DNA of 29,051 nt from a virus (lineage: Duplodnaviria; Heunggongvirae; Uroviricota; Caudoviricetes): IMG/VR virus record IMGVR_UViG_2547132278_000023; one strand, 5' to 3'. Made by a program: the position numbers and the translations under genes. Each line of letters begins with the position of its first letter. Positions within the stretch are counted from its first letter, which is position 1. Positions 1-25,623 of this stretch are shown here, one piece after another. The notes beneath the pieces were generated by a model. That model was not told where the DNA came from. It saw only the letters and a list, made by a program, of their open reading frames with translations, and ran no database searches.

Positions 1-1284
1 TTACAGACTTCTGGAAGGTTGCACAGCTCTTACAACACGCGGTTGATCTTCCGCAGCGTCTTCCAGCGCACTTAAATCACGGTCTTTCACTTCTGGCATT
101 TTCAGCGCAGAGATTAAACCAATCACTGAATATGCCATGATCATAATGGCGATCGGATACCAGGATTCCGTCATGGTGCAGAAAATACCCGCCAGGATAG
201 GACCAAAACCGGAAGCGATAAGACCACCAATTTCTTTAGAAATGGCCATCCGGGTAAAGCGGTTTTTACAGCCGAACATTTCTGCCATGGTAATGTTTTC
301 CAGAGCAAATAATCCCAGCACCGCACAGTTATGAATCACAATCAGTGCAACCATAATGGTGCTCGGGGCATAGCTTTTATCTACAATGATAGAAAGCATT
401 GGCCATGCCAGCACAATCGCGGAGGTATTCATAATAATATACGGGATCCGGCGACCAATTTTATCGGATAACCAACCAAGGAACGGAATGGTCATAAAGC
501 CGAGAATCGAACTAATCATCAATGCATCTGTTGGAATTGCTTTGTTAAACAATAACGTCTGCACTAAATAGCCTGCAAGGAAAGTCTGAATTAACCCGGA
601 GTTACCCGCCTGACCAAAACGCAGCCCTGTTGCCAGCCAGAAGGATTTGCTCTGGAACATGCTACCAGCAGGTGCAGGTTTTGCTGTGGGTTGGTTGCTG
701 TCATTAACCTTCTCAAAGACCGGGCTTTCTTTCAGATTCATACGTAACCAGATAGCAAAGACCATCACGACAACGCTCGCCAGGAACGGTATACGCCATC
801 CCCACGCCAGCAGTTCCTCTTTACTGAGAATGAAGAACATAAAGGCCCAGATTGCCGTTGCGCTCAAGGTTCCGCAGTTAGTTCCCATAGCTACAAATGA
901 GGAGATAATTCCGCGCTTACCTTTTGGTGCATATTCCGCCAGCATCGTACCGGCACCGGAAATTTCCGCACCTGCACCCAACCCCTGAATAATACGCAGC
1001 GTCACCAGCAAGATGGGGGCAAAAACACCAATCTGTGCATAGGTCGGTAACACACCAATTAAGGTGGTACAGATCCCCATCATGGTGATGGTAATAAAGA
1101 GCACTTTTTTACGCCCTATTCTGTCGCCCATTTTGCCGAAAATAAATGCTCCGACAATACGCGCCACATAACCTGCACCGTAGGTTCCCATTGCCAAAAT
1201 TAACGCCATTGCCGTTGATGATTCAGGAAAAAATATTTCATGAAACACTAACGCTGCGCCGAGCGAATATAACTGGAAATCCAT
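1..1284 (-). CDS. ydfJ: MFS (metabolite:H+ symporter family) transporter YdfJ, missing about 30 N-terminal residues including part of TM1; truncated by prophage integration
   Basis: 427-aa ORF with multiple hydrophobic helices and an MFS loop motif (GKMGDRIGRKK). Stop codon at 1-3. The N-terminus begins inside what should be TM1 when compared with ProP/KgtP-type transporters. Confidence 0.8.
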   Translation of the reverse strand: MDFQLYSLGAALVFHEIFFPESSTAMALILAMGTYGAGYVARIVGAFIFGKMGDRIGRKKVLFITITMMGICTTLIGVLPTYAQIGVFAPILLVTLRIIQGLGAGAEISGAGTMLAEYAPKGKRGIISSFVAMGTNCGTLSATAIWAFMFFILSKEELLAWGWRIPFLASVVVMVFAIWLRMNLKESPVFEKVNDSNQPTAKPAPAGSMFQSKSFWLATGLRFGQAGNSGLIQTFLAGYLVQTLLFNKAIPTDALMISSILGFMTIPFLGWLSDKIGRRIPYIIMNTSAIVLAWPMLSIIVDKSYAPSTIMVALIVIHNCAVLGLFALENITMAEMFGCKNRFTRMAISKEIGGLIASGFGPILAGIFCTMTESWYPIAIMIMAYSVIGLISALKMPEVKDRDLSALEDAAEDQPRVVRAVQPSRSL

Positions 1285-1503
1285 AATTCATAGATATTTT
1301 TTACCATCCTATGGATTTTTGGGCGTTTTCTAAGTTTTTTCAGATGGTTGTATTTTTTCTAAAAACTCCTGATCTCGATTTTGCTGTTTGTCTGAGACCT
1401 TTTTATGTCCCATATATGCCCCAAGGTGCCCCATGTAAATCCAATTCAACTCAAAGCATCCCTGTTCAATATTTTTACAAGGGGCTTGCATATCAGTGTT
1501 TTT
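1285..1503. other. Prophage/host junction (att) region between truncated ydfJ and the last phage gene
   Basis: AT-rich 219-bp non-coding gap between the ydfJ ORF start and the tail-fiber chaperone stop. Exact att core not determinable without the other prophage end. Confidence 0.4.
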
Positions 1504-2070
1504 TTATTGCGTAACGTCAAACGCTCGGATTGAGCGTAAATCATCAAGATTATTCAGCTCTTCCTTCATCTCCCGCTGACGACGATAAATCTCGTCATTG
1601 CGATCGGCCTGTGCCCGTGCCATTACTGCCGCAAGTTCTTCCAGTTCCTGCATCGTCAGGAGGATTGGCGTATTCTCTCCATCTCCCCAAACAATTGTTT
1701 CTCTGCCAGCTCCTGATTTCGCCGCCATTACCACTGGTAAGAGGCGGGACAGCGAAACCGGACCAGCATTCCATTTGTGACCTTTCCATTCCAGCATGAA
1801 CGACATGGACTCCTGTTCCTGACGCCATACTTCGATCTCACACACTTTAGCCTCTTTTTCTGCGGCAATAAGTTCAGGCGTAACGGTAAACCGGGCTATT
1901 CCGCCCCACTTCCCGCTTTGCAGTTCCTGCCAGACCTGTTTACCCATTTCCGCAACATCATTCTCAACAGCGGTATAAGGTAGATGTACCTCCTGCCCCT
2001 CCAAAAGCACTTCACAATATACAGCACCATCCTCCAGAAACATGGCATTTCTTATATTTTTTATCTGCAT
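1504..2070 (-). CDS. Putative tail fiber assembly/chaperone protein (not lambda Tfa type)
   Basis: 188-aa ORF starting 7 nt downstream of the stf stop on the same strand, the position of tfa in lambdoid phages. Sequence does not resemble lambda Tfa as I recall it; the DUF4376-like assignment is tentative. Confidence 0.5.
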   Translation of the reverse strand: MQIKNIRNAMFLEDGAVYCEVLLEGQEVHLPYTAVENDVAEMGKQVWQELQSGKWGGIARFTVTPELIAAEKEAKVCEIEVWRQEQESMSFMLEWKGHKWNAGPVSLSRLLPVVMAAKSGAGRETIVWGDGENTPILLTMQELEELAAVMARAQADRNDEIYRRQREMKEELNNLDDLRSIRAFDVTQ

Positions 2071-2076
2071 ACTCTG

Positions 2077-4035
2077 TCACCCGACCCGCACAAATAATCC
2101 TATATACGCTTCCTTTCCGTTGGTGGTATAAAGACCATCTCCCCCCAGAGACTGATACACTCCGGGAAATGCCGATGTATTCGTTCTGCCAATGACAAAC
2201 GTTGCCTCCCCTTTCATTGTGCCTGCTCCTGTCACGCCTCCCACTACTATTTCCACCGGCGCAAGTGCTTTTCCCGGGCATGGTTGTCCACGACTCAGGC
2301 GCATTAAAACTCCACCTTCCGCTACTCCCAAAAAAGCTGCCATAACCACACTGCCGATATCCGGTTTCGGCGAACTGATACTTCTTAAAAATTCATCCTT
2401 TGATAATTTGCTCTGAGCCTCATCCATTACCACTTTGACCGCTTTTGGGGTTGCCGCCAGTGACTCGGAAGTGCTGTTTGTCGCACTACTGAGTTGTACT
2501 ATCCCTTTCTGTGCTGTCGTTGCATTCTGTGCGGTGTATTTCCCGTTAGCCAGGTCATACGCGGCCTTAACTGCTTTTGGCGTTGCCGCCAGTGACTCGG
2601 AAGTACTGTTTGTCGCACTGCTGAGTTGTACTATCCCCTTTTTCGTCGTGCTCGCATCCTCAAGCGCCACGGCGTATGCAATATCCTCTGCCCGTTTTGC
2701 TGCTGTCTCGGCGCGCGTTGCTGCGGATTCTGCCGTACTCTTGCTCTGTGCTGCCGCCGTCGCACTACCAGCTGCCTCGGTCGCTTTCGTGGATGCCGTC
2801 GTGGCACTTCCCTTCGCTGCTGACGCCTGTTTAGTCGCCTCATCTTTTGAAGCAGACGCAGATGATGCCGATGACGCCGCCGAACTGGCGGACGATGCGG
2901 CAGCCGTTTTTGAGGATTCTGCGCTGGTTTCCGACGCTTTCGCGTTCGTTTCGGATGTCTTCGCTGCGGAAGCAGACCTCGCTGCTGCGCTGGCCTGTTC
3001 AGCGGCTTCGCCAGCCTTCGTTGTGGCTGTTGAAGCAGACGATGCGGCACTTTCTGCCGATTTTCCGGCGGCGGTGGCACTGGCTGAGGCCTGCCCGGCA
3101 CTTGTTGACGCGGCACTGGCAGACGACGCAGCCGCTGTTTTTGAGCCTGCCGCAGCTGAGGCGCTCTGTCCCGCTGCCGTCTCAGAAGACTTAGCGTTCG
3201 TCTCGGACGTTTTTGCCGCCTTCGCGGAATTTCCTGCCGCCGTTGCCGAGGAAGCGGCACTACTGGCGCTCGAGGATGCGTTCGTTTCTGATGATTTCGC
3301 TGCCTCTTTTGAGGCCGCCGCATCCCGGGCTGAGGTGGCAGCTTCTGAGGCTTTCGTAGTCGCGGTGGATGCAGAAGTGGCTGCTGATTGTTGTGACGCT
3401 GCGGCATTCGTTTCTGACGTTTTCGCCGCACCGGCACTGGTGGCCGCCGCGCTTTTTGAGGACTCTGCAGCGGCAGCACTTTTTGATGCCTCAGAGGCTT
3501 TTGCTGATGCCGTTCCCGCGCTGGAAAAAGCCTCCTGAGCCGACGTCGCGGCCTGTCCGGCTGACGTGCTGGCGGCACGAGCTGAGCCTGCAGCATCAGT
3601 CGCATGGGTTGCCGCCTCACGGGCTGATGTGCTGGCATCGCTGGCTGACTTCTTCGCGGCTGCCGTGTTCTGTGCCACCGCGGACGCGTTACGCGCCACC
3701 TCTTCCACCATCAGTTCAAAACGGCGCAGTGCCTCAGGACGGGCATCATCCTCCGTCATGGCACCGAGAAAATCATTCAGCGTACCGGGTCGGGAATCTT
3801 CATACACGGTGATGGTCCCGGCATGTGACGGCGGGAATCCCTCCACCAACAGAATAACGCTGTACTGCCCGTACTCAACGTCCATGCTGTAACGCCCGGC
3901 TTCATCCGGATTTTCTGAGGCCAGCGTGTTCACCACCACCGTGGTGCTGTTACGTTTTGCTTTCAGCTGGATTGTGCAGTTCTGTACCGGTTTTCCTGTG
4001 CCGTCTTTCAGTACACCTGAAATCTTTACTGCCAT
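2077..4035 (-). CDS. stf: Side tail fiber protein Stf: lambda-like N-terminal and Ala/Ser/Thr-rich shaft, divergent C-terminal tip
   Basis: N-terminus MAVKISGVLKDGTGKPVQNCTIQLKA... and the A/S/T-rich repeats match lambda Stf as recalled. The conserved fiber motif KGIVQLSSATNSTSESLAATPKAVK occurs twice. Track ORF starts 2 codons upstream (MNMAVK), so start is 4035 or 4041. Confidence 0.85.
   Translation of the reverse strand: MAVKISGVLKDGTGKPVQNCTIQLKAKRNSTTVVVNTLASENPDEAGRYSMDVEYGQYSVILLVEGFPPSHAGTITVYEDSRPGTLNDFLGAMTEDDARPEALRRFELMVEEVARNASAVAQNTAAAKKSASDASTSAREAATHATDAAGSARAASTSAGQAATSAQEAFSSAGTASAKASEASKSAAAAESSKSAAATSAGAAKTSETNAAASQQSAATSASTATTKASEAATSARDAAASKEAAKSSETNASSSASSAASSATAAGNSAKAAKTSETNAKSSETAAGQSASAAAGSKTAAASSASAASTSAGQASASATAAGKSAESAASSASTATTKAGEAAEQASAAARSASAAKTSETNAKASETSAESSKTAAASSASSAASSASSASASKDEATKQASAAKGSATTASTKATEAAGSATAAAQSKSTAESAATRAETAAKRAEDIAYAVALEDASTTKKGIVQLSSATNSTSESLAATPKAVKAAYDLANGKYTAQNATTAQKGIVQLSSATNSTSESLAATPKAVKVVMDEAQSKLSKDEFLRSISSPKPDIGSVVMAAFLGVAEGGVLMRLSRGQPCPGKALAPVEIVVGGVTGAGTMKGEATFVIGRTNTSAFPGVYQSLGGDGLYTTNGKEAYIGLFVRVG
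2430..2645. repeat. Two near-identical direct repeats of about 75 bp, separated by about 60 bp, inside stf
   Basis: The repeat encodes the duplicated KGIVQLSSATNSTSESLAATPKAVK motif and shows on the antisense frame as the repeated peptide TAFGVAASDSEVLFVALLSCTIPF. Coordinates approximate. Confidence 0.5.
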
Positions 4036-4099
4036 ATTCACCCCACAAAAAAGCCCTCCTGAACCGGCGGGCTGTCATAACACTGTGTTACCTGGCTAA

Positions 4100-4699
4100 T
4101 CAGAATTTATAACCGACACCCACAATGAAACCGTCAGTGCGCCAGTCACCACTGCCGGAGCCTTCATAAGCAATATCAATGGCCACGGATTCGGTCGGGT
4201 TAAACTGCACGCCAGCCCCCCACGCCAGAGACGTGTTGCTGTGGCGACCGTCATCACTTCCGGTCAGCACATCATGCGTTTTCCCCGTATTGTCGGTCAC
4301 CTGCAGATAATCCCCGGAGAAAGTCGACACACGGCTGTAAGCCACACCCGCCATCGCATACGCGCTGAACCATTCATTCACGCGCACAGACGGTCCCGCC
4401 ATCACGCTGAACCAGCGGTTACGCACGGAATCCTCATGCCAGCGGGTATCGCTGTAATGCGTTTTTTGCTCATCTTCAGCGTTGGCATAACTGAATGACG
4501 TAATCAGCCCCAGCGTGTCCGTAAACTCATAACGGTATTTCACGTTAATCCCGTTCAGATTATCGCTGCCGGGAGCGTTCGTACGGGCATGAAGATACCC
4601 TGCGCTCAGTGTGGCCTGCTGCTCAGACGCCCATGCAGGCGCACCGGATACGGCCAGACAGATGGCTGCGGACAAAATGGCTGCATAAACTTTACGCAT
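4100..4699 (-). CDS. lom: Outer membrane protein Lom (Ail/Lom family beta-barrel)
   Basis: 199 aa with signal peptide MRKVYAAILSAAICLAVSGAPAWA and C-terminus ...AYEGSGSGDWRTDGFIVGVGYKF identical in character to lambda Lom. Sits directly after J as in lambda. Confidence 0.9.
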   Translation of the reverse strand: MRKVYAAILSAAICLAVSGAPAWASEQQATLSAGYLHARTNAPGSDNLNGINVKYRYEFTDTLGLITSFSYANAEDEQKTHYSDTRWHEDSVRNRWFSVMAGPSVRVNEWFSAYAMAGVAYSRVSTFSGDYLQVTDNTGKTHDVLTGSDDGRHSNTSLAWGAGVQFNPTESVAIDIAYEGSGSGDWRTDGFIVGVGYKF

Positions 4700-4720
4700 A
4701 ATTACCTCTCGCTTTTCTGC

Positions 4721-4748
4721 AATAAAAAAGGCGCCATTTCTGGCGCCC
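4721..4748 (-). terminator. Rho-independent terminator-like hairpin downstream of the original J stop (tJ-like)
   Basis: Palindrome ggcgcc-atttct-ggcgcc followed on the minus strand by a run of T (aaaaaa on plus), between the original J stop and the lom RBS. Confidence 0.45.
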
Positions 4749-4780
4749 GTATTGGGGTTATAAAATTCAGCTGATACTGA

Positions 4781-4788
4781 TGCCTGCG
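4781..4788. repeat. 8-bp target site duplication (TGCCTGCG), left copy
   Basis: Identical octamer immediately flanks both ends of the IS66-family element (second copy at 7488-7495). Confidence 0.6.
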
Positions 4789-4818
4789 GTAAGCGACTCG
4801 TCAGAACCGTATTGATAT

Positions 4819-6390
4819 TTACTGAGAGCTCAGATCAACTTTCCAGGGCAACAGATCGCGTACCCGGTTTGCCGGCCAGTCCTGGATATGTTCAATGACG
4901 TAACGCAGCCACTTTTCTGGCTCCACATTGTTCAGACGGCATGTGCCGATCAGCGAGTACAACACCGCCGCATGTTCACCACCGCTGTCGGAACCCGCGA
5001 ACATCCAGTTTTTCCGGCCTACGGCCACTCCCCGTAAGGCGTTCTCTGCGATGTTGTTGTCGATTTCCACCCAGCCATTACTGCAGTACACGTTCAGTGC
5101 ATCCCACTGTTTCAGCAGGTATGCGAACGCTTTTGCCGTATCTGAGTGACGCGACAGTGTTTTCATCTGTTGCTGTATCCAGTCATACAGTGACTGCATC
5201 AGTGGCGCGGCTCTGGCTTTTCTTGCCGCCAGACGCTGTTCTGCTGAACAGCCCCGGACCTCTGCCTCGATGGCATACAGTTCACCGATACGCTGCAGGG
5301 CTTCCGTGGTGATGTAGGTGGGCGCTCTTGCATGCACATCGTGGATTTTTCTCCGGGCATGAGCCATACACGCGGCTTCCGTTATTCTGCCGGATTCGTA
5401 TAACGCCCGGTAACCACCGTAAGCATCGGCCTGAAGCACACCGCTGTAACCGGCCAGGTGATTTTGTGGATGGATACCTTTCCGGTCCGGACTGTACGCG
5501 AACCAGACCGCCGGGGGCATCTGTGAACCGGCGTTACGGTCATCACGGACGTAGACCCACAGCCGGGCTGTCCGGGTTTTACCGCTGCCCGGCTCCTGGA
5601 CCGGGACGGGGATATCATCAGCATGGACTTTACCGGGCATCAGCACATACTGGCGCAGGACGTCATACAGCGGCTCCAGCAGTTCAGCAACAGCACCTGT
5701 CCAGCGCCCCAGTGTGGCACGGCTCAGCTCCACTCCCTGACGACGGTATATTTCTGACTGGCGGTATAACGGCAGATGGTCTGCATATTTCCCGGTGACA
5801 ACATGGGCCAGAAGCCCCGCTCCGGCATAACTGCGTGCAATGGGTTTTGAAGGTACTGGTGCCTGCACGATATGGTCGCACCGGCAACAGGCCTGTTTCG
5901 GACGTTGTGTTTCGATAACCTTAAAGGCGCTGCTGATAAGCTCCAGTTGCTCTGACACATCACATCCCAGAGAACTGAGTTCACCACCACAGGCAGGACA
6001 GCATTCCTCTTCCGGCCGGATAACCCGGGTTTCACGGGGAAGTGAGGCCGGTAACGGTTTACGGGCTGAAGACTGGCGCAGGGCGGATGGCAGTACCGGG
6101 TCATATTGCTCACCCAGCGTTTCCGCCATTTCTTCCTGAAGTGCGCTGATTCGCTCCTGTGCTTCCTGTATCTGCCGTTCGGTTTTTGCACGAAGTTTTT
6201 CTGAGCTTTTACCGAACTGCATACGTTGCAGTTTCGCAACCAGCGCCTTCAGCCGGTTGATTTCGGAAGCATAAGCCGCCACCCGCTGTGAGAGCAGGCG
6301 GTTGTATTCAGCCATCTGGCGGATGGTGTCCTGTTGCGTCTGCAACAGTGCCCGCAGGCGGGCGTTCTCATGAGCAAGTGAGGTGTCCAT
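4819..6390 (-). CDS. tnpC: IS66-family transposase TnpC
   Basis: 523 aa with a leucine-zipper-like N-terminus, CxxC...CxxC zinc-finger region and DDE core typical of IS66 transposases. Confidence 0.9.
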
Positions 6391-6409
6391 ATCCTCACTT
6401 TACAACGGG

Positions 6410-6757
6410 TTATATGCGGATTCCAGCGCGTTCCGTTCGTTTCGGGTGCTTCCAGTTGATACCTTCAAGAAGCATGGATAACTGAGCCGGAGTAAGGTGC
6501 ACCTTGCCGTCACGGGTGACTGGCCAGACGAAGCGGCCCCGCTCCAGGCGTTTGGTGAAGAGGCACAGTCCGTCACTGTCAGCCCACAACACTTTTATCT
6601 GGTCACCCCGGCGTCCGCGGAAGATGAACAGGTGTCCGGAGAACGGGTCATCCTTCAGGACGTTCTGAACTTTTGATGCCAGGCCGTTAAAGCCATTTCG
6701 CATATCGGTGATACCTGCAACCAGCCAGATACGCGAACCTGCAGGGAGAGATATCAT
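6410..6757 (-). CDS. tnpB: IS66-family accessory protein TnpB (orf2)
   Basis: 115-aa ORF between tnpA and tnpC, typical size, sequence and position for IS66 orf2. Confidence 0.85.
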   Translation of the reverse strand: MISLPAGSRIWLVAGITDMRNGFNGLASKVQNVLKDDPFSGHLFIFRGRRGDQIKVLWADSDGLCLFTKRLERGRFVWPVTRDGKVHLTPAQLSMLLEGINWKHPKRTERAGIRI

Positions 6758-7434
6758 CAGTGGCTGCTCCCTTTTATTTCGCGGATAAGTGTCTGTAATA
6801 ACGCCGGCGTCAGTTTACCTTTAAGCCTGAGAGTTCCGGCCGGCAGAACCAGCTCACAACACAGACTGTCGGGCGGTGTATTTATCTGCTCTGGTTCCTG
6901 TGCGGGGGCCGGGATTTTATTATCCGGCTCCGGCGTTAACGTCACGGGAAGCAGTGCCGGCATATTTTTTCCGGAAGGCAGCAGGCCACCTTTCCGGTAT
7001 TGATGGCGCCAGTTGAAGAGCAGGTTATCGTTGATTCCGTTTTCCCGGGCGATCTGCGCCACACAGGCTCCGGGCTGCAGTGACTGCTCCACTAAGGCGA
7101 TTTTAAACTCATAAGGGAAGTTGGGCCGCCGGGGACGTTTTTTTACCACGGGGGCTTCGGATATAACGGTGCTTTCAGGACGTACGACTGGTACCGTGGA
7201 AAATTGTCCGTAAAGGCAGGCATCAAGTTCCTGCTCCGACATGCCTGCGGGCAAAGGCCACGAAAGGCCAGCTCTCCGAAAGCGCACGAACATACTACAA
7301 ACAGTTGATTTTGGTACACCCAGGCGACGCCCGGCCACAACCCGGGGTAAATGTTCTTCAAAGTGAAGACGTAAAGCTTCAGTGATCCAGGTCCGGTGTT
7401 TCATACGATAGTGTCCATTAAAAATGATGGACAT
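6757..7434 (-). CDS. tnpA: IS66-family accessory protein TnpA (orf1); true start probably internal to this ORF
   Basis: Contains the HTH region ...VAQIARENGINDNLLFNWRHQYRKG characteristic of IS66 orf1. Stop overlaps the tnpB start by 1 nt. The 225-aa track ORF is longer than typical orf1. Confidence 0.7.
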   Translation of the reverse strand: MSIIFNGHYRMKHRTWITEALRLHFEEHLPRVVAGRRLGVPKSTVCSMFVRFRRAGLSWPLPAGMSEQELDACLYGQFSTVPVVRPESTVISEAPVVKKRPRRPNFPYEFKIALVEQSLQPGACVAQIARENGINDNLLFNWRHQYRKGGLLPSGKNMPALLPVTLTPEPDNKIPAPAQEPEQINTPPDSLCCELVLPAGTLRLKGKLTPALLQTLIREIKGSSH

Positions 7435-7470
7435 TATTTTTGTAGAGCCGGAGGAAACAGACCAGACGGT

Positions 7471-10400
7471 TTAAATGAGCCGGTTACTGCCTGCGGTGGC
7501 TTTCTTCATCACCACAACCAGCAAATCGCTGATACTTGCTGTGGGATACCAGTCATTTACCAACCATGCTGACACCGAAAACTCCAGTGTCATGTGACCG
7601 TGACCGGCAGGCATATCAATAACACCACTGTAAATCAGCGTATTATCCAGCGCGGTACGGTTATAAATTTCAGCACCGTTTTTCCGTACTATCAGACGGC
7701 ATGAGGAGTAAATATCAGTATGCTCTTTCTCATGTTTAGCGCCGCTGAATGCCACCGCCGGAATAACAATCTGCCGGTCAAACGGCTGATCGTCATAAAC
7801 CCTGACGGTAATGGTTCCTGATGGCCACCGCTCCGGTGCACGGGAGTCCCGGGGGAAAGCTTTGCCCACTGTTTTAACGAGATCGCCTTCAATCTGGTTC
7901 GCGGACAGTTTTCCCAGAACCCGACAGTTCTCGTTAATCGTGACGTTGTTGAGCGTCCCGGAGTTCGCATTCACGTTACCGCTGATATCGGCATTTTTCG
8001 CCGTCAGCCGCCCGTCCGGTGTCAGGGAAAATGCCGGAGGATTACCGCCGCTGGTAATGGTCGGAGCCGTCAGGCGTTTCAGGAACACGTCGTTCATGAA
8101 TATCTGATCGCCCTGACCAACAAACATTGGTCTTGTGTTGCCATTAGACGGATCAATAAACGCGATACGGTTAGCGGCAACCAGGAACTGGCTCAGCTTG
8201 CCTTCTTCCGTGTCCTCCATGCTGAGGCCAATACCCGCGACATAATGTTTGCCGTCTTTGGTCTGCTCAATTTTGACAGCCCACATGGCATTCCACTTAT
8301 CGTTGGCGTCCTTCCACTCTTTCGAAAACTCCTCCAGTCTGCTGGCGTTATCCTCCGTCAGCTCGACTTTTTCCAGCAGCTCCTTGCCGAGATGGGATTC
8401 GGTTATCTTGCCTTTGAAAAAATCCAGGTAACCTTCCGCATCATCGCTCGCCCGACCGACGGCCTCCACGAATGCCGATTTGCCAACGGTGTTCACACTG
8501 CGGATATAAAAGTAATAATCATGGCCCGGTTTGATATTGATACTGGCGGCTATCCAGTACAGCCCCGTGCCAAGGTAGCGGGCTGTGGTTTCAACCTGCC
8601 TGATATCGGTAATCCGCGTTTCCGAGAACCAGAACTCAAACTGCACCGTCGGGTCATATACAGCCAGTTTCGGGACCGCCGTTATCTGAAAATAGCCCGG
8701 TGTCAGCTCAATCCGCGACGGCGCTGCCGGTGCGGCAATCCGGAACGATACCGACGCCGGATCGCCCTGCTGCCCCCACGCATTTACTGCCCGGACTGTC
8801 AGCCTGTAGTTCCCCAGCGCCAGTTGTGTGAAGCGGTAAGTGGTTTCCGTCGTCCGGGCCGTGCTGACCAGCCGCTCACTGCCGTCATCCGCTGCCACGG
8901 TCAGGCGAAGCATAAAGCTCACCCCCTTCACCACCTTCGGCGTGTCCCAGCGCGCCAGCACCTGATATTCCCCGCTGTCTGCGGTGACTTCGGCAGTCAG
9001 GTGCTGCACCGCGGGCGGCGTGACACCATTCACCGTGCCGCTCTGGTCGCCGTCAAAGTGCGCCCCGTTATCCACGATGGCTTCTTTTTCCGGTACATGC
9101 TGCACGGCGGTGATGGCATACGTGCCGTCGTCGTTCTCACGGATACTCACGCAGCGGAACAGGCGCTGGCGCAGCGTCGGCAGCTTCAGCCCCCATACGC
9201 TGTATTCAGCAACGCCGTCAGGAACACGGCTCACTTTCACCTTCACGCCGTCGGTGACGGACTGAACCTCCACGCTGACCGGATTACCACTTCCGTCAAC
9301 CAGGCTTATCAGCGTGGTACCGGAGGATGGCAGCGTGATTTCACGGTCGAGCGTCAGCGTCCGGGTCTGGCTGTTCACCGCCAGCACGCGACCACCGGTG
9401 CTGATACCGGCATAGTCATCATCGCAGATTTCAATGACATCGCCCGGTACATGGCGAAGCCCTTCAGCACCCACGCTGAAATCCACGGTCTGCGTCTCCA
9501 GCAGTTCCGTTTTAATCAGCCACAGCCCGGCGCGGTGTGCCTGCCCCCGGCTGGTACAGCCAAAGGCATCCATCTTCGTGACGTTACGACCGTAACGGGC
9601 AATGGCCTGCGTATCTTCAACAAGCTCTGTCGCCGTCTCCCAGCCGTTATCCGGGTCAATCCAGTTCACCTCAACGGCATTATGGCGGTCTTTCAGGGCG
9701 CTGAAACTGTAGCGGAACGGCGCGCCATCATCCGGCATCACCACATTACTGCGGTTATAGGCCCACACCTTATCCGACGGTCGGTCCTGCACGAACGTCA
9801 GCGTCTGCCCGTTCCATACCGGCATACAGCGCATCGCCGAGCAGAAATCACTGAGCACATCCCACGCTTTGCGCTGTGTGGTCAGGTACGCATTACAGGT
9901 GATGCGCGGCTCCGTGCCGCCAAAGCCGTCCGGCACTGACTGGTCGCAGTACTGGCCGATGACATACAGCGCCCATTTGTCCACATCCGCCGCACCAAGA
10001 CGTTTCCCCATGCCGTAGCGTGGATGGGTCAGCATATCCCACAGACACCAGGCCATGTTATTGCTGTATGCTGGCTTAAACGTTCCGTCCCAGATACCGC
10101 TGTATTGCCGAGTCTGCGGGTTATAGTTCGACGGCACCTGCAGAATACGCCCGCGCAGATGATAATTACGGCTCACCTGCTGGCTGCCGAACTGCTCCGA
10201 ATCCACCTGTACGCCGACCAGTGCCGTGTTCGGGTAGCACTGTTTCACATCGATGATTTCGGTGTATGACGACCAGAGCGTTTTGTTCTGCAGCTGGTCT
10301 GTGGTGCTGTCCGGCGTCATTCTGCGCATCCGGATATTAAACGGGCGCGGCGGCAGGTTATCCACCACCACCGAGGCCAGATACTGCGAGGTGGTTTTGC

Positions 10401-10869
10401 CCTTAATGGTGATGTCTTTTTCCGTCACCCAGCCACCATTACGCTGTATCTGAACCAGCAGGCGAACTTCCGACGGATTCCGGTCCCCCTTTGAGGTGGT
10501 TTCCACCAGTGCCTGCACACCGAAGGTAAAGCGCAGACGGTCGATGTTTGCCGACGTGATGGTCCGGGTAATCGGCGTGTCGTATTTCACTTCCGTACCC
10601 AGTACCGTCTCGGAACCTGATGATTCAAATCCCTCCGGCGGTGTCTGTTCCTGCTCACCTGCCCGGAACACCACCGTGACACCAGAGATGTTAGTATTCC
10701 CCTCACTGTCCAGCACCGGTGTACTGTTCAGCAGCACGCTTTTTAATCCATCCACCGGACCTTCAACCGGCCCTTCGCTGATGGCATCGATCACACTCAG
10801 CAACTGCGTGGACTTCAGGTTGTCCTTTGCTTCGCGCGGGGTATGCCCCTTACTGCTGCCTTTACCCAT
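7471..10869 (-). CDS. J: Tail tip host-specificity protein J (central tail fiber); last 5 codons and stop come from the IS66 end
   Basis: 1132 aa, same length as lambda J, co-linear with the lambda order I-J-lom. The ORF runs 17 nt into the IS, giving ...[11 protein letters not shown] instead of the reconstructed ...KKATAGISIS*. Confidence 0.9.
7488..7495. repeat. 8-bp target site duplication (TGCCTGCG), right copy
   Basis: Same octamer as 4781-4788, abutting the right IS66 terminus. Confidence 0.6.
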
Positions 10870-12916: not shown

Positions 12917-13245
12917 CAGTTCACCACCTGTTCAAACTCTGCGCTGAACTCAACACGCAGCATACTGACCCGCGACGACCATTTTGCGCAGGTCACCTTT
13001 ATCTGCCGCCACTCATAAGGCGGCGTCCACAGAAAGGATTTCCAGCCCCCGTACTCTTCCAGAAACGACTCCAGTACCGTGGCCTCCTCACGGGGGACAG
13101 AAAGCGTCACGCTGTACGTTTTCAGGTTGGCATTCAGCCCGGCAGGCGCTCGCTGAGAATAGCCATCACCAAAGCGCACCTTTCTTACAGAAGGGACCGA
13201 AGCCACATCCATACCGGGTTTCACTTTCCAGCGGAAGGTCTTCAT
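12916..13245 (-). CDS. M: Tail tip protein M
   Basis: 109 aa, lambda M length, in lambda order between H and L. Start overlaps the H stop. Confidence 0.9.
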   Translation of the reverse strand: MKTFRWKVKPGMDVASVPSVRKVRFGDGYSQRAPAGLNANLKTYSVTLSVPREEATVLESFLEEYGGWKSFLWTPPYEWRQIKVTCAKWSSRVSMLRVEFSAEFEQVVN

Positions 13246-15821
13246 CGTCCACCTCCGGAGAACAGGCCACCATCACGCATCTGTGTCTGAATTTCATCAC
13301 GGGCACCCTTGCGGGCCATGTCATACACCGCCTTCAGAGCAGCCGGACCTATCTGCCCGTTCGTGCCGTCGTTGTTAATCACCACATGGTTATTCTGCTC
13401 AAACGTCCCGGACGCCTGCGACCGGCTGTCTGCCATGCCGCCCGGTGTACCGACATAACCGCCGGTGGCATAGCCGCGCATCAGCCGGTAAAGATTCCCC
13501 ACGCCAATCCGGCTGGTTGCCTCCTTCGTGAAGACAAACTCACCACGGTGAACAATCCCCGCTGGCTCATATTTGCCGCCGGTTCCCGTAAATCCTCCGG
13601 TTGCAAAATGGAATTTCGCCGCAGCGGCCTGAATGGCTGTACCGCCTGACGCGGATGCGCCGCCACCAACAGCTCCGCCAATGGCGCTGCCGATACTCCC
13701 GACAATCCCCACCATTGCCTGCTTAAGCAGAATTTCTGTCATCATGGACAGCACGGAACGGGTGAAGCTGCGCCAGTTCTGCTCACTGCCGGTCAGCATC
13801 GCCGCCATATTCTGTGCAATACCATCAAAGGTCTGCGTGGCTGCACTTTTTACCTGCGACATACTGTCCGTGGCGCTCTCTTCCCACTCACTCCAGCCGG
13901 ACTTCAGGCCTGCCATCCAGTTCCCGCGAAGCTGGTCTTCAGCCGCCCAGGTCTTTTTCTGCTCTGACATGACGTTATTCAGCGCCAGCGGATTATCGCC
14001 ATACTGTTCCTTCAGGCGCTGTTCCGTGGCTTCCCGTTCTGCCTGCCGGTCAGTCAGCCCCCGGCTTTTCGCATCAATGGCGGCCCGTTTTGCCCGTTGC
14101 TGCTGTGCGAATTTATCCGCCTGCTGCGCCAGCGCGTTCAGGCGCTCCTGATACGTAACCTTGTCGCCAAGTGCAGCCAGCTGGCGTTTGTACTCCAGCG
14201 TCTCATCTTTATGCGCCAGCAGGGATTTCTCCTGTGCAGACAGCTGGCGACGTTGCGCCGCCTCCTCCAGTACCGCGAACTGACTCTCCGCCTTCCACAA
14301 ATCCCGGCGCTGCTGGCTGATTTTCTCATTTGCTCCGGCATGCTTCTCCAGCGTCCGGAGTTCTGCCTGAAGCGTCAGCAGGGCAGCATGAGCACTGTCT
14401 TCCTGACGATCGCCCGCAGACACCTTCACGCCGGACTGTTTCGGCTTTTTCAGCGTCGCTTCATAATCCTTTTTCGCCGCCGCCATCAGCGTGTTGTAAT
14501 CCGCCTGCAGGATTTTCCCGTCTTTCAGTGCCTTGTTCAGTTCTTCCTGACGGGCGGTATATTTCTCCAGCGGCGTCTGCAGCCGTTCGTAAGCCTTCTG
14601 CGCCTCTTCGGTATATTTCAGCCGTGATGCCTCAGACTCGGCCCAGTCCTTTGCTGCCATCTCTCTGGCCTTTTCAAGATCGGCCTGCAACGTGGCGGCT
14701 GAAAGTCCAAGTTGCGCATTCGCTCTGTCCTCCCATGCTCCCCGGAGATTGGCACGAAATGCTGAGGTTTTACCGCGCCGGTGGCTCCGGCTCTGATACC
14801 ACTGCCATTTTTTGTCCGCCTCATCAAAAGCCTTTTCTGCTTTCTCCAGCATTCCCTGGGCAGTGTCCGGGCGACCAATATCCAGCACCGAATCCCACAT
14901 GGATTTGAATGCCCGTGCTGTCCTGTCTGCCCAGGTCTCCAGCGTGCCCATGTTCTCTTTCAGGCGGCGGGTCTGGTCATCAAACCCTTTCGTTGCGGCC
15001 TCGTTCGCCGCCTGCAATGCCCCGGCTTCATCTCCGGAACGCTGCAACTGAGCAACATACGCAATCTGCTCCGCCGTCACGTTATGGAACTGACGTGCCA
15101 TCGCTGTCAGTCCCGACGTCGGGTCTGTGGTCAGCTTCCCGAAGGCTTCAGCGACCTTGTCCACCTCCACGCCGGATGCAGAGGAGAAACGCGCCACACT
15201 CTGGCTGATCGCCTCAAACTGCTCACCACCACGCACACCGGCATTCACCAGCGCCGTCAGTGACTCGCTGGTCTGGTTAAACGTCAGCCCTGCCGCCTGC
15301 CCGGCTCTGGACAGGACCAGCATACGATCTGCCGTCAGTCCCGCCTGATTGCCGGAAAGGACCAGCGTTTTGTTGAAATCGGACAGGGTTGAGTTGCCCT
15401 GATACCAGGCATACGCCAGCGCACCGGTCGCCACCGCCAGCGAGGTGGCCCCCACCATCGGCAGGGTGATCGCACCGGCAAGCCCCCTGAACATGGGGAT
15501 CATCCCGCCGAAGGAGTCCTTAACCTGACCCCCCTGTTGCAGCAGGATCAGCCACGGACTTTGCCCGCCTGCAAGCTGCGTGGCCACGTCGGTGAACTGT
15601 GCAGGCAGCATACGCATGGCGGCTTTATACTGTCCGACGGAAATCCCCGCTTTCTGTGCAGCCAGCGCCTGCCGGTTCATTGACTGTTCAACGACTGCCG
15701 CTGTTTTTTTCGCATCACTTTCCGTATCGGAAAAATGACGCCTGACTCTGGCCATCTGCTCGTCAAATCTGGCCGCATCCAGACTCAAATCAACGACCAG
15801 ATCGCCTACCGGTTCAGCCAT
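13242..15821 (-). CDS. H: Tail tape measure protein H
   Basis: 859 aa, long coiled-coil-rich protein with Gly-rich C-terminal region, in lambda position. Lambda H is 853 aa. Confidence 0.9.
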   Translation of the reverse strand: MAEPVGDLVVDLSLDAARFDEQMARVRRHFSDTESDAKKTAAVVEQSMNRQALAAQKAGISVGQYKAAMRMLPAQFTDVATQLAGGQSPWLILLQQGGQVKDSFGGMIPMFRGLAGAITLPMVGATSLAVATGALAYAWYQGNSTLSDFNKTLVLSGNQAGLTADRMLVLSRAGQAAGLTFNQTSESLTALVNAGVRGGEQFEAISQSVARFSSASGVEVDKVAEAFGKLTTDPTSGLTAMARQFHNVTAEQIAYVAQLQRSGDEAGALQAANEAATKGFDDQTRRLKENMGTLETWADRTARAFKSMWDSVLDIGRPDTAQGMLEKAEKAFDEADKKWQWYQSRSHRRGKTSAFRANLRGAWEDRANAQLGLSAATLQADLEKAREMAAKDWAESEASRLKYTEEAQKAYERLQTPLEKYTARQEELNKALKDGKILQADYNTLMAAAKKDYEATLKKPKQSGVKVSAGDRQEDSAHAALLTLQAELRTLEKHAGANEKISQQRRDLWKAESQFAVLEEAAQRRQLSAQEKSLLAHKDETLEYKRQLAALGDKVTYQERLNALAQQADKFAQQQRAKRAAIDAKSRGLTDRQAEREATEQRLKEQYGDNPLALNNVMSEQKKTWAAEDQLRGNWMAGLKSGWSEWEESATDSMSQVKSAATQTFDGIAQNMAAMLTGSEQNWRSFTRSVLSMMTEILLKQAMVGIVGSIGSAIGGAVGGGASASGGTAIQAAAAKFHFATGGFTGTGGKYEPAGIVHRGEFVFTKEATSRIGVGNLYRLMRGYATGGYVGTPGGMADSRSQASGTFEQNNHVVINNDGTNGQIGPAALKAVYDMARKGARDEIQTQMRDGGLFSGGGR

Positions 15822-16248
15822 ACCGGACTCCTCCTGCGATCCCTTCTGATACTGTCATCAGCATTACGTCATCCTCCGTCATGTCCGCCACATCCGGGGA
15901 AGCGGGGATAACTTCATTCCCGTCCGGGCCAAAGCGGACGCCTCCGGCAAGCCCTGCCGCTTTCTGCATCAGCACATCATCTTCAGGCTCTTCGTCAGCC
16001 TCGCGCCGGTTCAGCAGACTGAAATCCAGCGGATGCATATCCGGATCGCTGAAAAACAGGCTGAGTACGGTGTACGTCAGCCCGGAAAAGTGCATATCCA
16101 GCAGAACATCATGAAAATAATGGGTACTGTAAAAGCGGTGCCAGTCGGCATACTCCGTGGATGACATCCCGGCAAGCATGGCGCGCCAGTCGGGTCGCCC
16201 CATCTCACGCGCCAGTTTCAGGGCAAAACTCAGCTCACCGTCGAACAC
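15814..16248 (-). CDS. T: T segment of tail assembly chaperone GT, expressed only as a G-T fusion by -1 ribosomal frameshift
   Basis: 144-aa ORF in the -1 frame relative to G, overlapping the G 3' end. The track's first codon is GTG, immediately after the slippery heptamer. Confidence 0.8.
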   Translation of the reverse strand: MFDGELSFALKLAREMGRPDWRAMLAGMSSTEYADWHRFYSTHYFHDVLLDMHFSGLTYTVLSLFFSDPDMHPLDFSLLNRREADEEPEDDVLMQKAAGLAGGVRFGPDGNEVIPASPDVADMTEDDVMLMTVSEGIAGGVRYG

Positions 16249-16652
16249 TTTCCCGCAGAAACAGGCTCTGCTGGCCCGGCGTCATCTGCCTGTTCAGGTG
16301 CATCATTCACAACAAACTCAGACATACCGGACAGACGCATTACCACATTTTCAGCCTGAGCAATTGCCTCTGTGGGCCAGGTGGTAAGCACTTCCTGCTC
16401 AATTTGTTTAACGGCTTCATTCATGGACGGCATCTTTGTCTTCTGCGGATGGCTATGCCACAGGGACATCGCCACCAGAAAAGCACCGGTTCTGACGAGA
16501 TCTTCCACGCTCACCTGTCGATTGAGACTGGATCCCGCCTGTTCTGCCTGTCGTTTCAGCAGGGCGAGATGCTCAATTCGCTGCAGGGCTGACAGTTCAG
16601 AAAGCGTGACGCTCACACCGTTATATTCAAATGATTCGGTTTTCAGGAACAT
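16230..16652 (-). CDS. G: Tail assembly chaperone G
   Basis: 140 aa, MFLKTESFEYNGVSVTLSELSALQRIEHLALLKRQAEQ... ends ...PVSAGKCSTVS as lambda G. Confidence 0.9.
   Translation of the reverse strand: MFLKTESFEYNGVSVTLSELSALQRIEHLALLKRQAEQAGSSLNRQVSVEDLVRTGAFLVAMSLWHSHPQKTKMPSMNEAVKQIEQEVLTTWPTEAIAQAENVVMRLSGMSEFVVNDAPEQADDAGPAEPVSAGKCSTVS
16248..16254 (-). other. Programmed -1 frameshift slippery heptamer G GGA AAG (G to GT)
   Basis: Minus-strand sequence ...gcg gga aag tgt tcg... (G frame: AGKCS) shifts to ...ggg aaa gtg ttc gac ggt gag... (T frame: GKVFDGELSFALKL). Same heptamer and position as lambda G/GT. Confidence 0.7.
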
Positions 16653-16667
16653 CGCTGACTCTCCGGA

Positions 16668-17408
16668 TTAACTGTCGGTGACGGTGATTTCTGCAACCAC
16701 AGCAAGTTCACCATTACCGGATACAACCGGAATGTTGACCTTGCCTGCAGCAACACCTTTCACGGTGATGGTCATACCACTGACCGACACGGTGACTTTT
16801 GTTTTATCCGCAGACACCGCACGGAAGCTCTTGTCGGTTGCGCCTTCCGGCTGGAATGCCACGGTCAGCGTGGTGCTCTGCCCTTTCACCACCGAAGTGC
16901 TGGCAGGCGTCACGGTCATGCCGGTTGCCGCTGTTACCGTGCTGCGATCTTCTGCCATCGACGGACGTCCCACGTTGGTGACTTTCACCGTGCGGGTGAT
17001 CACTTCCTTCGCCGTCACCGCCTTACCGATACTGCTGACCCAGCCGCGGAACACATCGACCGTGCCGTTCGGGAAGCGGATTTTATAGGCACGGGTATCC
17101 CCTTCATTAAACCACGCCAGCAGCGCCTGCTGCCCCTGCTCTCCGGGCATCCACGCCAGCGTGAAGCTGGTATCTCCGGCAGATTTCTGCCCCTGCCCGG
17201 TCGCAGTCCAGTCCGCATCTTCATCATCGAGATAGCTGTCGTCATAGGACTCAGCGGTCAGTTCGCCGGGCGTCAGGTCTTTAACTTTAGCCAGACGCGA
17301 CCAGTCAACGTCTGAAAGCGGGTTCGCATAAGGGTCACCGTTCCCCTTATAAACCCACAGTGTGGTCCCGGCCCCTTTCACCGGCATTACTGGATTTGGT
17401 ACAGGCAT
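16668..17408 (-). CDS. V: Major tail tube protein V with C-terminal Ig-like domain
   Basis: Matches lambda V from [22 protein letters not shown]... The track ORF has a 10-codon upstream extension; start set at the conserved Met. Confidence 0.9.
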
Positions 17409-17415
17409 ATCGTCC

Positions 17416-17811
17416 TCACATTTCATAGGTAATGACATAAGTCAGATCGGCTGAACTCCACAGGCCCGCATCATCGTCGCGCCGGTAGTCATAGCCACTG
17501 GCCACCATACTGGTGATCAAATCTGACAGTGCCGGGACATCGCTCATCACCGGATAAATCCGGGACTCCATCCACGAATCCAGCTCTGAATCCGGCACCT
17601 GAGCAGGCAGGAAAACTTCAATATGCAGCTCCGCCTGCCAGGTATCACTGTCCAGCTCTTCGCCCGTGTATTCAGCGCCGGTGAGATAAACGGCAATTGC
17701 CGGAAAATCCGCCTCATCAAAAACAGCGGGGCGACCATCAAAAAGCGTCGCCCCGGTGTCATGCTTCTCCAGTGCATCCAGTACGGCTGCACGGAGTTCA
17801 GTATGTTTCAT
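17416..17811 (-). CDS. U: Tail terminator protein U
   Basis: Matches lambda U from [22 protein letters not shown]... to ...LTYVITYEM. The track ORF has a 20-codon upstream extension. Confidence 0.9.
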
Positions 17812-18386
17812 CGCTTTATTACCATTCTCAGTTGATGCTGCAGCGCATAGCCCAGCTCTTTCGGAAGACATTCACGCCGTATCCGTTCAATATTCTGTTT
17901 AAACGCCGTGGTAAGCGGCACCGCCATCGGGATTTTCACCACATCAATGGGGTAACGGTTTTTCCCGGCCACACGCTGCATGACATGCCACCGGCCATTT
18001 TTCAGTTGCTGAATAAACGCGCCGGGAATACGACGGTTTCCCACCACAAGCACGCTGCCGCCACCTTTCAGGGATGAACGCTGCCCCTTTTTACGACGTC
18101 TGCGGCGGGAAAGGACAACCCGCGCGTTACCCAGCTTGATTACGGGCAAATCCCCCCGGTTAACCCTGATTCTGGCCTGCGGATTTTTGACCGTGGCCCT
18201 TTTCAGCCTGGCCCTTTCCTTTACCAGTTTCCGGCGTACCTTTGTCTCACGGGCAACCTGTGACGCAGACTGCGATATCGCGGATGACGCAACGCGGTTA
18301 ATGGTCATTGCGGCGGCACCAGGCACCGCCGTTTTGCTGATACGGCTGAGGTTTTCAACGGCCTGCTCAAGACCTTTTATGGCCAT
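17808..18386 (-). CDS. Z: Tail completion protein Z
   Basis: 192 aa, MAIKGLEQAVENLSRISKTAVPGAA..., lambda Z length and order. Confidence 0.9.
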   Translation of the reverse strand: MAIKGLEQAVENLSRISKTAVPGAAAMTINRVASSAISQSASQVARETKVRRKLVKERARLKRATVKNPQARIRVNRGDLPVIKLGNARVVLSRRRRRKKGQRSSLKGGGSVLVVGNRRIPGAFIQQLKNGRWHVMQRVAGKNRYPIDVVKIPMAVPLTTAFKQNIERIRRECLPKELGYALQHQLRMVIKR

Positions 18387-18397
18387 ACATCCCCCTT

Positions 18398-18751
18398 TCA
18401 GCGGCGACGGTTAACGGCAGGCGGCACGCCACGCCCAAGCCAGAGATGACAGCTTCCGCCATCATCCGGCGAAATCCGGTCCACCCAGAAGTTTTCCTCG
18501 CCGATGGTCAGTGTGTCTCCACGCCGCAGCTGCCGCACATCATCAGTCCGGACAAACAGGGACGGGCTGGAGCCTTCAACGCGCACCCCCTGTCCGGCAT
18601 AGCTGATATTTTCAGGGTCATCAAAAACACCACGTATCACAGCACCGGACAGCTCACCGGATGTCATGGTGGCTGACGTTCCCATGTACCCGCGTATCGT
18701 TTCATCGGCGCGGGCAATGGCAGCATCGAACAGGTTATCGGAATCAGCCAC
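18398..18751 (-). CDS. FII: Head-tail joining protein FII
   Basis: 117 aa, MADSDNLFDAAIARADETIRGYMG..., lambda FII length and order. Confidence 0.9.
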   Translation of the reverse strand: MADSDNLFDAAIARADETIRGYMGTSATMTSGELSGAVIRGVFDDPENISYAGQGVRVEGSSPSLFVRTDDVRQLRRGDTLTIGEENFWVDRISPDDGGSCHLWLGRGVPPAVNRRR

Positions 18752-18762
18752 AGCGCCTCCCG

Positions 18763-19158
18763 TTATTGCATTCTGGCCAGGCCATGTTCTGTCATTTCGG
18801 CTGCCACACCGGCAGAGACACGAAACGCCGTTCCCGGCAGCACAAATGCCACAGGCTCATCCCGCGTGGCGTGAAGTGCATCAGTATGCAGCGTCACCAG
18901 TGCCACGACCGTGACCAGAGCAGCCGTATCAATCACGGTATCCGGCTGCGCTGATACCACCTCATTTTCATGTCCGGTCAGCGCATTTTCCGGGCTGACA
19001 GATGTGTCCTGACCGGCAGCGTCATCCGTGTCATCAAGCTCCTCTTCCAGCTCTGCCACACGGAGCACCAGTTCTTCTTTCGTCCCCGTCAGGCTGACAT
19101 CACGGTTCAGTTGCTCACCCAGCACCTGAAGACGGGCAATCAGTTCATCTTTCGTCAT
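18763..19158 (-). CDS. FI: DNA packaging / head completion protein FI
   Basis: Matches lambda FI from MTKDELIARLQVLGEQLNRDVSLTGTKEEL... The track ORF has a 13-codon upstream extension through the E-FI hairpin. Confidence 0.85.
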   Translation of the reverse strand: MTKDELIARLQVLGEQLNRDVSLTGTKEELVLRVAELEEELDDTDDAAGQDTSVSPENALTGHENEVVSAQPDTVIDTAALVTVVALVTLHTDALHATRDEPVAFVLPGTAFRVSAGVAAEMTEHGLARMQ

Positions 19159-19179
19159 AGACTCCTCCACAGAGAGAAA

Positions 19180-19197
19180 ATGGCCCCGAAGGGCCAT
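19180..19197 (-). promoter_or_regulatory. Perfect hairpin in the E-FI intergenic region
   Basis: atggcccc-gaag-ggccat palindrome between the E stop and the FI RBS (cctccac on plus strand). Coordinates +/-1. Confidence 0.3.
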
Positions 19198-19199
19198 GA

Positions 19200-20225: not shown

Positions 20226-20245
20226 AAAAAAATCCCGTAAAAAAA

Positions 20246-20259
20246 GCCGCACAGGCGGC
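20246..20259 (-). promoter_or_regulatory. GC-rich hairpin followed by a T-run in the D-E intergenic region (terminator/attenuator-like)
   Basis: Minus strand reads gccgcctgtgcggc then ttttttt, then the E RBS and ATG. Coordinates +/-1. Confidence 0.35.
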
Positions 20260-20280
20260 CTTTAGTGATGAAGGGTAAGG

Positions 20281-20613: not shown

Positions 20614-20622
20614 AAACATCCC

Positions 20623-21922: not shown

Positions 21923-21942
<20 letters not shown>
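20623..21942 (-). CDS. C: Head maturation protease / scaffold C (439 aa), apparent GTG start
   Basis: Matches lambda C from (V/M)TAELRNLPHIASMAFNEPLMLEPAYARVFF... A GTG codon preceded by gaggaggagaa lies at the lambda start position. 20-nt overlap with the B 3' end, as in lambda. Confidence 0.85.

Positions 21943-25623
<3,681 letters not shown>

Follow-up and report, generated by a model that had tools for sequence, protein, structure and literature searches.

An ISCro1 copy in the last codons of a lambda-like prophage J gene rewrites the C-terminus of the tail-tip protein

The window analysed here, a stretch of 29,051 nucleotides of viral DNA (Caudoviricetes), carries an insertion sequence at the 3' end of J, the gene of the tail-tip protein that binds the receptor. 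This raises the questions of which element is present, how it came to lie there and what it means for J and for the genes behind it. The best explanation is a simple and recent transposition of ISCro1 into the last codons of J, for which we estimate a probability of about 0.9. It would have been a single event in a lambda-like prophage at ydfJ of an ETEC strain.

The segment 4789-7487 is 100% identical in nucleotide sequence, across positions 1-2699, to copies in ETEC genomes that RefSeq assigns to ISCro1. The annotation of these identical copies reads 'IS66-like element ISCro1 family transposase', and it is this near-identity to a named element that defines the copy as ISCro1. The preliminary description had proposed a complete 2699-bp IS66-family element of the IS679/ISEc8 type. 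Ends, Pfam set and boundaries uphold the family and the completeness, but IS679 or ISEc8 as the identity is ruled out by the annotation and by the exact identity to ISCro1. The three genes are encoded on one strand with tnpA and tnpB upstream of tnpC, and base 6757 is common to tnpA and tnpB. The tnpC product covers positions 1-283 of the 284 in the PF03050 profile and also matches zf-IS66, LZ_Tnp_IS66 and DDE_Tnp_IS66_C (Pfam). The ends read GTAAGCGACTCG... from 4789 onwards and GTAACCGGCTCA... in the reverse complement from 7487, with 18 of the first 26 positions identical. A repeat search recovers the same arms as imperfect inverted repeats, both GTAA-initiated (GTAAGCG... and GTAACCG...). 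A DDE TnpC, accessory tnpA and tnpB, GTAA-initiated repeats and an 8-bp duplication are thus all present, as expected for the IS66 family. The order tnpA-tnpB-tnpC, the GTAA-initiated imperfect repeats and the 8-bp duplication are common to this copy and the IS66 and IS679 prototypes; gene order and repeats are reportedly family features according to Han et al. 2001.

The duplication flanking the element is exact, as first described, and the probability that 8 nt agree by chance at two given places is 1/65,536. Alignment of the termini gives IS66-family end behaviour in nine independent copies: for eight other copies at fetched loci, the alignment runs exactly from 1 to 2699, and each has its own, different 8-bp duplication. 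An 8-bp target duplication is also the reported footprint of IS66 (PMC6778807). ISCro1 of Citrobacter rodentium ICC168, where the element was first named and where it is the most expanded IS (PMC3072379), has the same three genes, ends and 8-bp duplication. Identical copies occupy many different sites in related genomes, an indirect sign that the element may transpose, with 7-10 places per chromosome in the same lineage. Compared to these copies, the element itself shows no difference; what distinguishes this strain is the insertion site alone.

Table 1. Features at the J-lom region of the window.
Feature	Position	Strand	Basis or remark
Complete ISCro1 (IS66 family), 2699 bp	4789..7487	-	genes co-oriented with phage late operon
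tnpA, 225 aa, accessory protein with HTH domain	6757..7434	-	HTH_Tnp_1, PF01527, E 8.5e-15; RefSeq annotation of identical copies
tnpB, 115 aa, IS66 Orf2-like accessory protein	6410..6757	-	TnpB_IS66, PF05717, E 4.7e-40
tnpC, 523 aa, IS66-family DDE transposase	4819..6390	-	DDE_Tnp_IS66, PF03050, E 2.5e-103
tnpA-proximal terminal inverted repeat, minus-strand GTAACCGGCTCATTTAAACCGTCTGG	7462..7487	-	supplies new J codons AGT AAC CGG CTC ATT TAA
tnpC-proximal terminal inverted repeat GTAAGCGACTCGTCAGAACCGTATTG	4789..4814	+	18/26 positions match other end
Target-site duplication copy 1, TGCCTGCG	4781..4788	.	exact 8 bp
Target-site duplication copy 2, TGCCTGCG	7488..7495	.	exact 8 bp
J (tail-tip / central fibre protein), 1132 aa	7471..10869	-	six J-specific Pfam domains; translation
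Displaced native J 3' end, 11 coding nt (..TC AGT ATC AGC) and TGA stop at 4767-4769	4767..4780	-	
Native terminator-like hairpin between J and lom, GGGCGCCAGAAATGGCGCCT + TTTTTATT	4729..4748	-	predicted; present in empty-site relatives too
lom (Ail/Lom outer-membrane protein)	4100..4699	-	PF06316, E 1e-123; distance from J increased by 2.7 kb
Side tail fibre (stf-like) ORF	2077..4041	-	PF08400, PF03406
DUF4376 protein in tfa position	1504..2070	-	PF14301 and annotation

J shows all six Pfam families of its domain series above cut-off (FNIII-A, Phage-tail_3, two Ig_J, Phage_Tail_Tip and Ig_GpJ_C). This is the series of lambda J (gpJ, 1132 aa; PDB 8IYK, 8XCJ, 8XCK) and of A8 gpJ (9WCA, 9WCB). 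Its last five residues, SNRLI, and its stop codon are encoded by the ISCro1 end. Deletion of the element and one duplication copy reconstructs a J of 1131 aa that ends KKATAGISIS*. Translation and reconstruction therefore agree with the initial proposal that the insertion rewrites the C-terminus, and with the native end given there. The element would have entered after the first base of codon 1128 in the 1131-codon gene with duplication of 8 bp of target, and reading from J into the tnpA-proximal repeat replaces the native G-I-S-I-S* by G-S-N-R-L-I*.

The empty site exists in nature. Nine E. coli records, among them the same prophage at ydfJ in ETEC 120899, contain a reconstructed site of 600 bp unbroken and with 100% identity, and 3261 genomes contain it at a coverage of at least 80%. 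These IS-free relatives end in ...GISIS and not in ...SNRLI. That J natively ends in SNRLI in this phage lineage, next to a repeat that flanks the element by coincidence, is excluded: the terminal repeat of the IS contains both the codons for SNRLI and the stop, this end occurs in 0/120 close homologs and in 0/44 tabulated representatives with a full tail, and the exact SNRLI-ending J is recorded on a single contig. This contig is AELB01000021.1, a draft assembly that belongs to ETEC TW10722 according to the strain listing of a paper. The filled junction in one piece has no match in 5426 complete E. coli genomes, and exact-junction scans of metagenome_contigs and of genome_contigs (species-representative genomes) returned none. 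The event is thus recent and specific to the strain.

A draft assembly from a lineage with many ISCro1 copies could also yield such junctions through homologous recombination between two copies or through an error that collapses repeats, and the identity to the sister prophage indeed falls from 100% to about 97% beyond window position ~13000. Yet recombination between IS copies gives non-matching flanking 8-mers (PMC6778807), while here both flanks carry the identical duplication and, when joined, are 100% identical to natural empty sites. Window positions 1-4790 are 100% identical to the ydfJ locus of ETEC 120899, and J differs at only 2 nucleotides. The first mismatch to the sister prophage lies 1.7 kb from the IS rather than at the junction, and the mismatches accumulate mainly beyond 13 kb, so that we reject a breakpoint at the element and regard an origin other than simple insertion as scarcely credible. 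We also find it very improbable that ISCro1 targets the J-lom junction, by a hot spot or a preferred orientation, or that selection favours insertions there for uncoupling lom and stf from J. ISCro1 does occur in other genomes no more than about 700 bp away from this site and in both orientations, namely in B19374 (duplication TTTTCTGC), AUSMDU00014361 and B1_2 (GTTTACGC), Z1322HEC0005 (GTTGAGCG), 94_0962 and three anti-oriented cases. However, every position and every duplicated 8-mer differs, which means that there is no shared target sequence, and about 8 of 5426 genomes compare with about 14,000 places similar to ISCro1 and with a target region present in about 14,000 copies. The first five neighbours were all co-oriented. 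This pattern was an artefact of a search that joined same-strand pieces only; a mirrored query found the three anti-oriented cases, and with 3 genomes anti-oriented versus 4 co-oriented an orientation bias is rejected. Accumulation of IS elements is known for prophages in general (PMC3072379).

The residues exchanged by the insertion are not arbitrary. From homologs we define a C-terminal motif K-K-x3-G-I-x-[I/V]-x-COOH, which is our own and not a curated one; the reconstructed J conforms to it and the J of the window does not. An AGI[ST]IS end is present in 118 of 120 close J homologs, and lambda J ends in GISVV, to which the native GISIS tail of this J corresponds. Across 34 distinct receptor-binding domains (39-100% identity), K130, G134 and I135 never vary and I137 is conserved at 97%, and each of the 44 tabulated representatives ends exactly 4 residues past the Gly. 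The motif is among the most conserved parts of the otherwise variable receptor-binding domain of J. The insertion replaces the invariant Ile by Ser and the conserved Ile/Val by Arg, and the copy in the window has lost the conserved G-I-x-[I/V]-x end. Taken literally, the first description of J as intact apart from its terminal residues is correct, but it makes the change look smaller than it is. Since the replaced residues belong to the invariant motif, intact J function should not be assumed. With the invariant Ile and the conserved Ile/Val removed, the altered tail probably impairs J, be it by weaker folding, trimer packing or adsorption. J1127-1, constructed as an adsorption-rate allele of lambda, has the change L1127P one residue before the conserved Gly (PMC3176204).

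Could the last four residues instead be a dispensable tail, so that their exchange is neutral and adsorption normal? We consider this unlikely. Only 4 of 1131 residues change, and the papers on J structures place the receptor contacts in four bottom loops, L1-L4, and not at the C-terminus; those on lambda J do not discuss residues 1129-1132 or mention a C-terminal tail. In an AF2 monomer model of the native domain (28-row alignment), the domain has a pLDDT of 80-96, while the last six residues are below 50 and have no secondary structure. A single-sequence AF2 model of the altered domain was unusable, with a mean pLDDT of 51.6. Against a dispensable tail stands a G-I-x-[I/V]-x of fixed length that is invariant or nearly so across domains otherwise only 39-60% identical, and the fact that Ser and Arg now occupy both conserved hydrophobic positions. 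The native-domain model matches 9WCA, 8XCK, 8XCJ and 9WCB, the last being A8 gpJ bound to OmpC. The last 249 aa of J match A8 gpJ with E 1.2e-110 and lambda J with E 5.2e-90, and the receptor-binding domain of this J differs from the LamB-binding domain of lambda. It is a quite improbable outcome that the J ending in G-SNRLI still assembles with an altered adsorption or host range, or that the G-I-x-I-x tail is a structural element of the J trimer that had escaped notice. If the former were true, IS ends that land in the final codons of a receptor-binding protein would be a natural way for new C-termini to arise; if the latter, the natural G-SNRLI variant would offer a test of it. The strict conservation and fixed length of the G-I-x-[I/V]-x end of J proteins could interest engineers of lambda-type receptor-binding domains.

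Downstream of J, ISCro1 displaces by 2.7 kb the native stop codon of J, the hairpin between J and lom, and the genes lom, stf and the one in tfa position. The physical separation of lom, stf and tfa from the late operon, noted in the preliminary description, is confirmed at this distance. In lambda, polymerase modified by Q passes through terminators. On this basis lom and stf probably remain within reach of late transcription, since such a polymerase already has to pass the native hairpin, and since the IS is co-oriented with the late operon and has no terminator-like site predicted on that strand. A polar effect of ISCro1 on lom and stf, if any, is expected not to be absolute.

ISCro1 in J is a case of ordinary prophage decay, which is an already known kind of event. 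The insertion would be neutral or mildly beneficial to the host as part of ongoing, IS-driven decay. With ISCro1 in J and IS100 interrupting its Rz, this prophage is best handled as a decaying one, and its J should carry a flag in annotation that marks it as IS-modified, so that it is not taken for a natural receptor-binding variant. The prophage is not obviously dead, since every other morphogenetic ORF of the window has its full length. Disruption of prophage genes by IS elements is likewise seen in other pathogenic E. coli, where genes are disrupted, whereas here the nearness to the stop codon leaves J rewritten and not truncated. In ETEC 120899, ISCro1 has entered the sister prophage at its terminase gene and a second prophage at a tail gene, and in O26 RM10386 it lies at the end of a tail-fibre gene.

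The block between J and lom is an identical copy of a known insertion sequence, ISCro1, in a prophage gene, and the event is of an ordinary, already known kind. Its three genes carry the IS66 set of Pfam domains (see table). The block begins with GTAAGCGACTCG and its opposite end, read inward, with GTAACCGGCTCA, with 18 of the first 26 positions in agreement. It is directly flanked on both sides by TGCCTGCG (4781-4788 and 7488-7495), a match expected by chance at two fixed positions once in 65,536, and an 8-bp duplication is the footprint reported for IS66 (PMC6778807). Domains, terminal repeats and flanks together bear out the preliminary description of a 2699-bp IS66-family element with an 8-bp duplication. 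Its suggestion of an IS679/ISEc8-type element holds for the family but not for the member, as the block matches, at 100% identity over its full length, copies in at least 13 records of ETEC chromosomes and plasmids. In RefSeq these copies are labelled "IS66-like element ISCro1 family transposase", alongside tnpA and tnpB. Eight further ISCro1 copies from fetched loci align over exactly 1-2699, with duplications GGTTAACC, TGTCATTC, GTTCATCG, TTTTCTGC, GTTTACGC (in two genomes), GTTCAACC and GTTGAGCG. Because these copies share the same limits and differ in their duplications, the boundaries of ISCro1 are fixed independently of the window. ISCro1 is the most expanded IS in Citrobacter rodentium ICC168 (PMC3072379).

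Features of the window, with strand and basis of assignment
Feature	Coordinates	Strand	Basis or remark
Terminase genes	23724-26169	minus	ORFs
J	7471-10869	minus	ORF and domains
IS block	4789-7487 (2699 bp)		between J and lom
tnpA	6757-7434	minus	HTH_Tnp_1 (Pfam)
tnpB	6410-6757	minus	TnpB_IS66, E 4.7e-40 (Pfam)
tnpC	4819-6390	minus	DDE_Tnp_IS66, E 2.5e-103, with zf-IS66, LZ and C-terminal IS66 domains (Pfam)
Native terminator-like hairpin	4748-4729	minus	GGGCGCC-AGAAAT-GGCGCCT, then TTTTTATT; between native J stop and lom
lom	4100-4699	minus	ORF
Side-fibre ORF	2077-4041	minus	ORF
DUF4376 gene	1504-2070	minus	ORF
Truncated ydfJ (MFS transporter)	1-1284		where the series of ORFs ends

Excision of 4789-7495 restores a J of 1131 residues with the native end ...KKATAGISIS*. 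In the window, the terminal repeat of the IS supplies the codons AGT AAC CGG CTC ATT TAA, and J has 1132 residues. The reconstructed 600-bp empty site is found unbroken and 100% identical in nine records; of 5426 complete E. coli genomes, 3261 contain it at 80% coverage or more. Among the nine is ETEC 120899, where the same prophage occupies the same ydfJ site; that prophage is 100% identical over window positions 1-4790, and its J differs by two nucleotides. These IS-free relatives confirm that J natively ends in G-I-S-I-S and was altered by the IS, as proposed. A recombination breakpoint at the IS can be ruled out because the first mismatch to the ETEC 120899 prophage lies 1.7 kb away, and IS–IS recombination or a chimeric assembly is ruled out by the matching duplications on both flanks. 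The observation as a whole is confirmed, and its interpretation is supported. From 7488 to about 13000, window and sister prophage show nearly no differences; over 13000-24351, in tail-tube and head genes, identity is mosaic (5-44 mismatches per 500 bp), a pattern typical of lambdoid recombination.

Neither filled junction was found in one piece in any of the 5426 complete E. coli genomes, nor was the exact 28-nt junction string found in metagenome or species-representative genome collections. For the exact altered J, contig AELB01000021.1 (GCA_000166555.2) is the only record; AELB00000000 is listed as ETEC strain TW10722 from Guinea-Bissau, 1996 (PMC4309559). On account of these absences and the single contig, the insertion is recent and strain-specific.

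A modestly useful by-product is the recognition of a conserved C-terminal tail of fixed length in lambda-type J, which the insertion destroys here. Lambda J ends ...KKQALGISVV*. Among 120 close J homologs, 118 end in AGI[ST]IS; another is short of just the final residue, and the remaining one ends KKSHCRHHD, apparently a frameshift product. The close homolog P0033 ends ...VVVMKKSHCRHHD instead of ...KKSTAGISIS, apparently through a frameshift, and is, besides the window's J, a natural variant without the conserved tail. The last 139 residues of J, run exhaustively with HMMER against 1.84 billion cluster representatives, gave 127 matches. In all 44 tabulated representatives that keep the domain end (39-99% identity), the stop falls exactly four residues past a glycine, with endings such as GISIR, GISIS, GITIS and GISVV. 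Aligning 34 distinct domains (39-100% identity) shows no variation at K130, G134 and I135 and 97% conservation at I137, and the mean frequency of the commonest residue in blocks elsewhere in the domain is 0.40-0.77. The common motif, drawn from the J receptor-binding domain (window 7471-7890) and proteins P0121-P0227, is K-K-x3-G-I-x-[I/V]-x-COOH.

The insertion changes G-I-S-I-S to G-S-N-R-L-I, placing Ser and Arg at both conserved hydrophobic positions and lengthening J by one residue. The earlier wording that J is intact except for its terminal residues is right in confining the change to the tail and too lax in that the replaced residues are this fixed-length motif. In lambda, L1127P, one residue N-terminal of the motif glycine, is part of an allele built for altered adsorption rate (PMC3176204). 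Given this allele, the conservation of the tail and the loss of both hydrophobic positions, the function of J in the window is, on indirect evidence, probably impaired. In an AF2 monomer model, the native domain adopts an Ig-like fold (pLDDT 80-96), with the last six residues below 50 and without secondary structure; this is compatible with inter-subunit contacts in the trimer and with a floppy tail alike, and a tail unstructured in the monomer hints at a trimer contact. The model fits best to A8 gpJ (9WCA; 9WCB for the OmpC-bound form) and to gpJ of lambda (8XCK, 8XCJ). Structural papers on J assign the receptor contacts to four bottom loops and do not mention the C-terminal tail.

The lambda-like late region spans the whole window on the minus strand. 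As had been stated, the IS physically separates lom, stf and tfa from the late operon, putting 2.7 kb between them and J. Its genes share the direction of the late operon, and a scan of that strand found no terminator-like site inside the IS. The only strong such site on this strand is the native hairpin, which late transcription already has to cross in IS-free relatives. In lambda, a similar hairpin with a run of T after it can be seen by eye past the J stop. Since Q-modified polymerase of lambda is established to read through terminators, late transcription would be expected to continue across the IS into lom and stf. Upstream of lom, promoter prediction on the minus strand gave no sigma-70-like candidate. 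The side-fibre ORF is uninterrupted (654 aa); as the 100% identical sequence in 120899 is annotated as a pseudogene without C-terminus, the fibre encoded by this stf may be truncated or recombined. In window 1-1500, the prophage adjoins truncated ydfJ, and a fragment of the DinI family lies at about 1344-1433; in E. coli K-12, ydfJ is the site of the Qin prophage.

The prophage is in decay, and its lineage is rich in IS elements. An IS100 (IS21 family) starts near 28800, at the right window edge, and runs off the end (IstB C-terminus 28866-29051, minus strand). It cuts an Rz-type lysis gene, of which a 102-aa ORF (28430-28738) is left where about 155 residues are expected; the Rz1-like lipoprotein ORF embedded there (28471-28677) is unbroken, and all remaining morphogenetic ORFs of the window have their full length. 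In the ETEC 120899 sister prophage (L003), the J site is empty and an identical ISCro1 copy in opposite orientation lies inside the large terminase gene (37148-39846, equivalent to window 24344-24351; duplication GTTCATCG). ISCro1 thus hit the same prophage independently in two related strains. A second prophage of ETEC 120899 carries ISCro1 in a tail gene.

In at least seven other E. coli genomes (L004-L008, H179-H181), ISCro1 lies within about 700 bp of the J–lom boundary; in L006, ISEc22 adjoins it. A seeming bias towards co-orientation with J arose because the search joined same-strand pieces only. A mirrored query gave three anti-oriented cases; the co-oriented ones number four genomes, at three sites. 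Both orientations occur and positions and 8-mers all differ, and a bias or hot spot was dropped. A mild IS excess in prophage DNA is expected through tolerance of insertions (PMC3072379).
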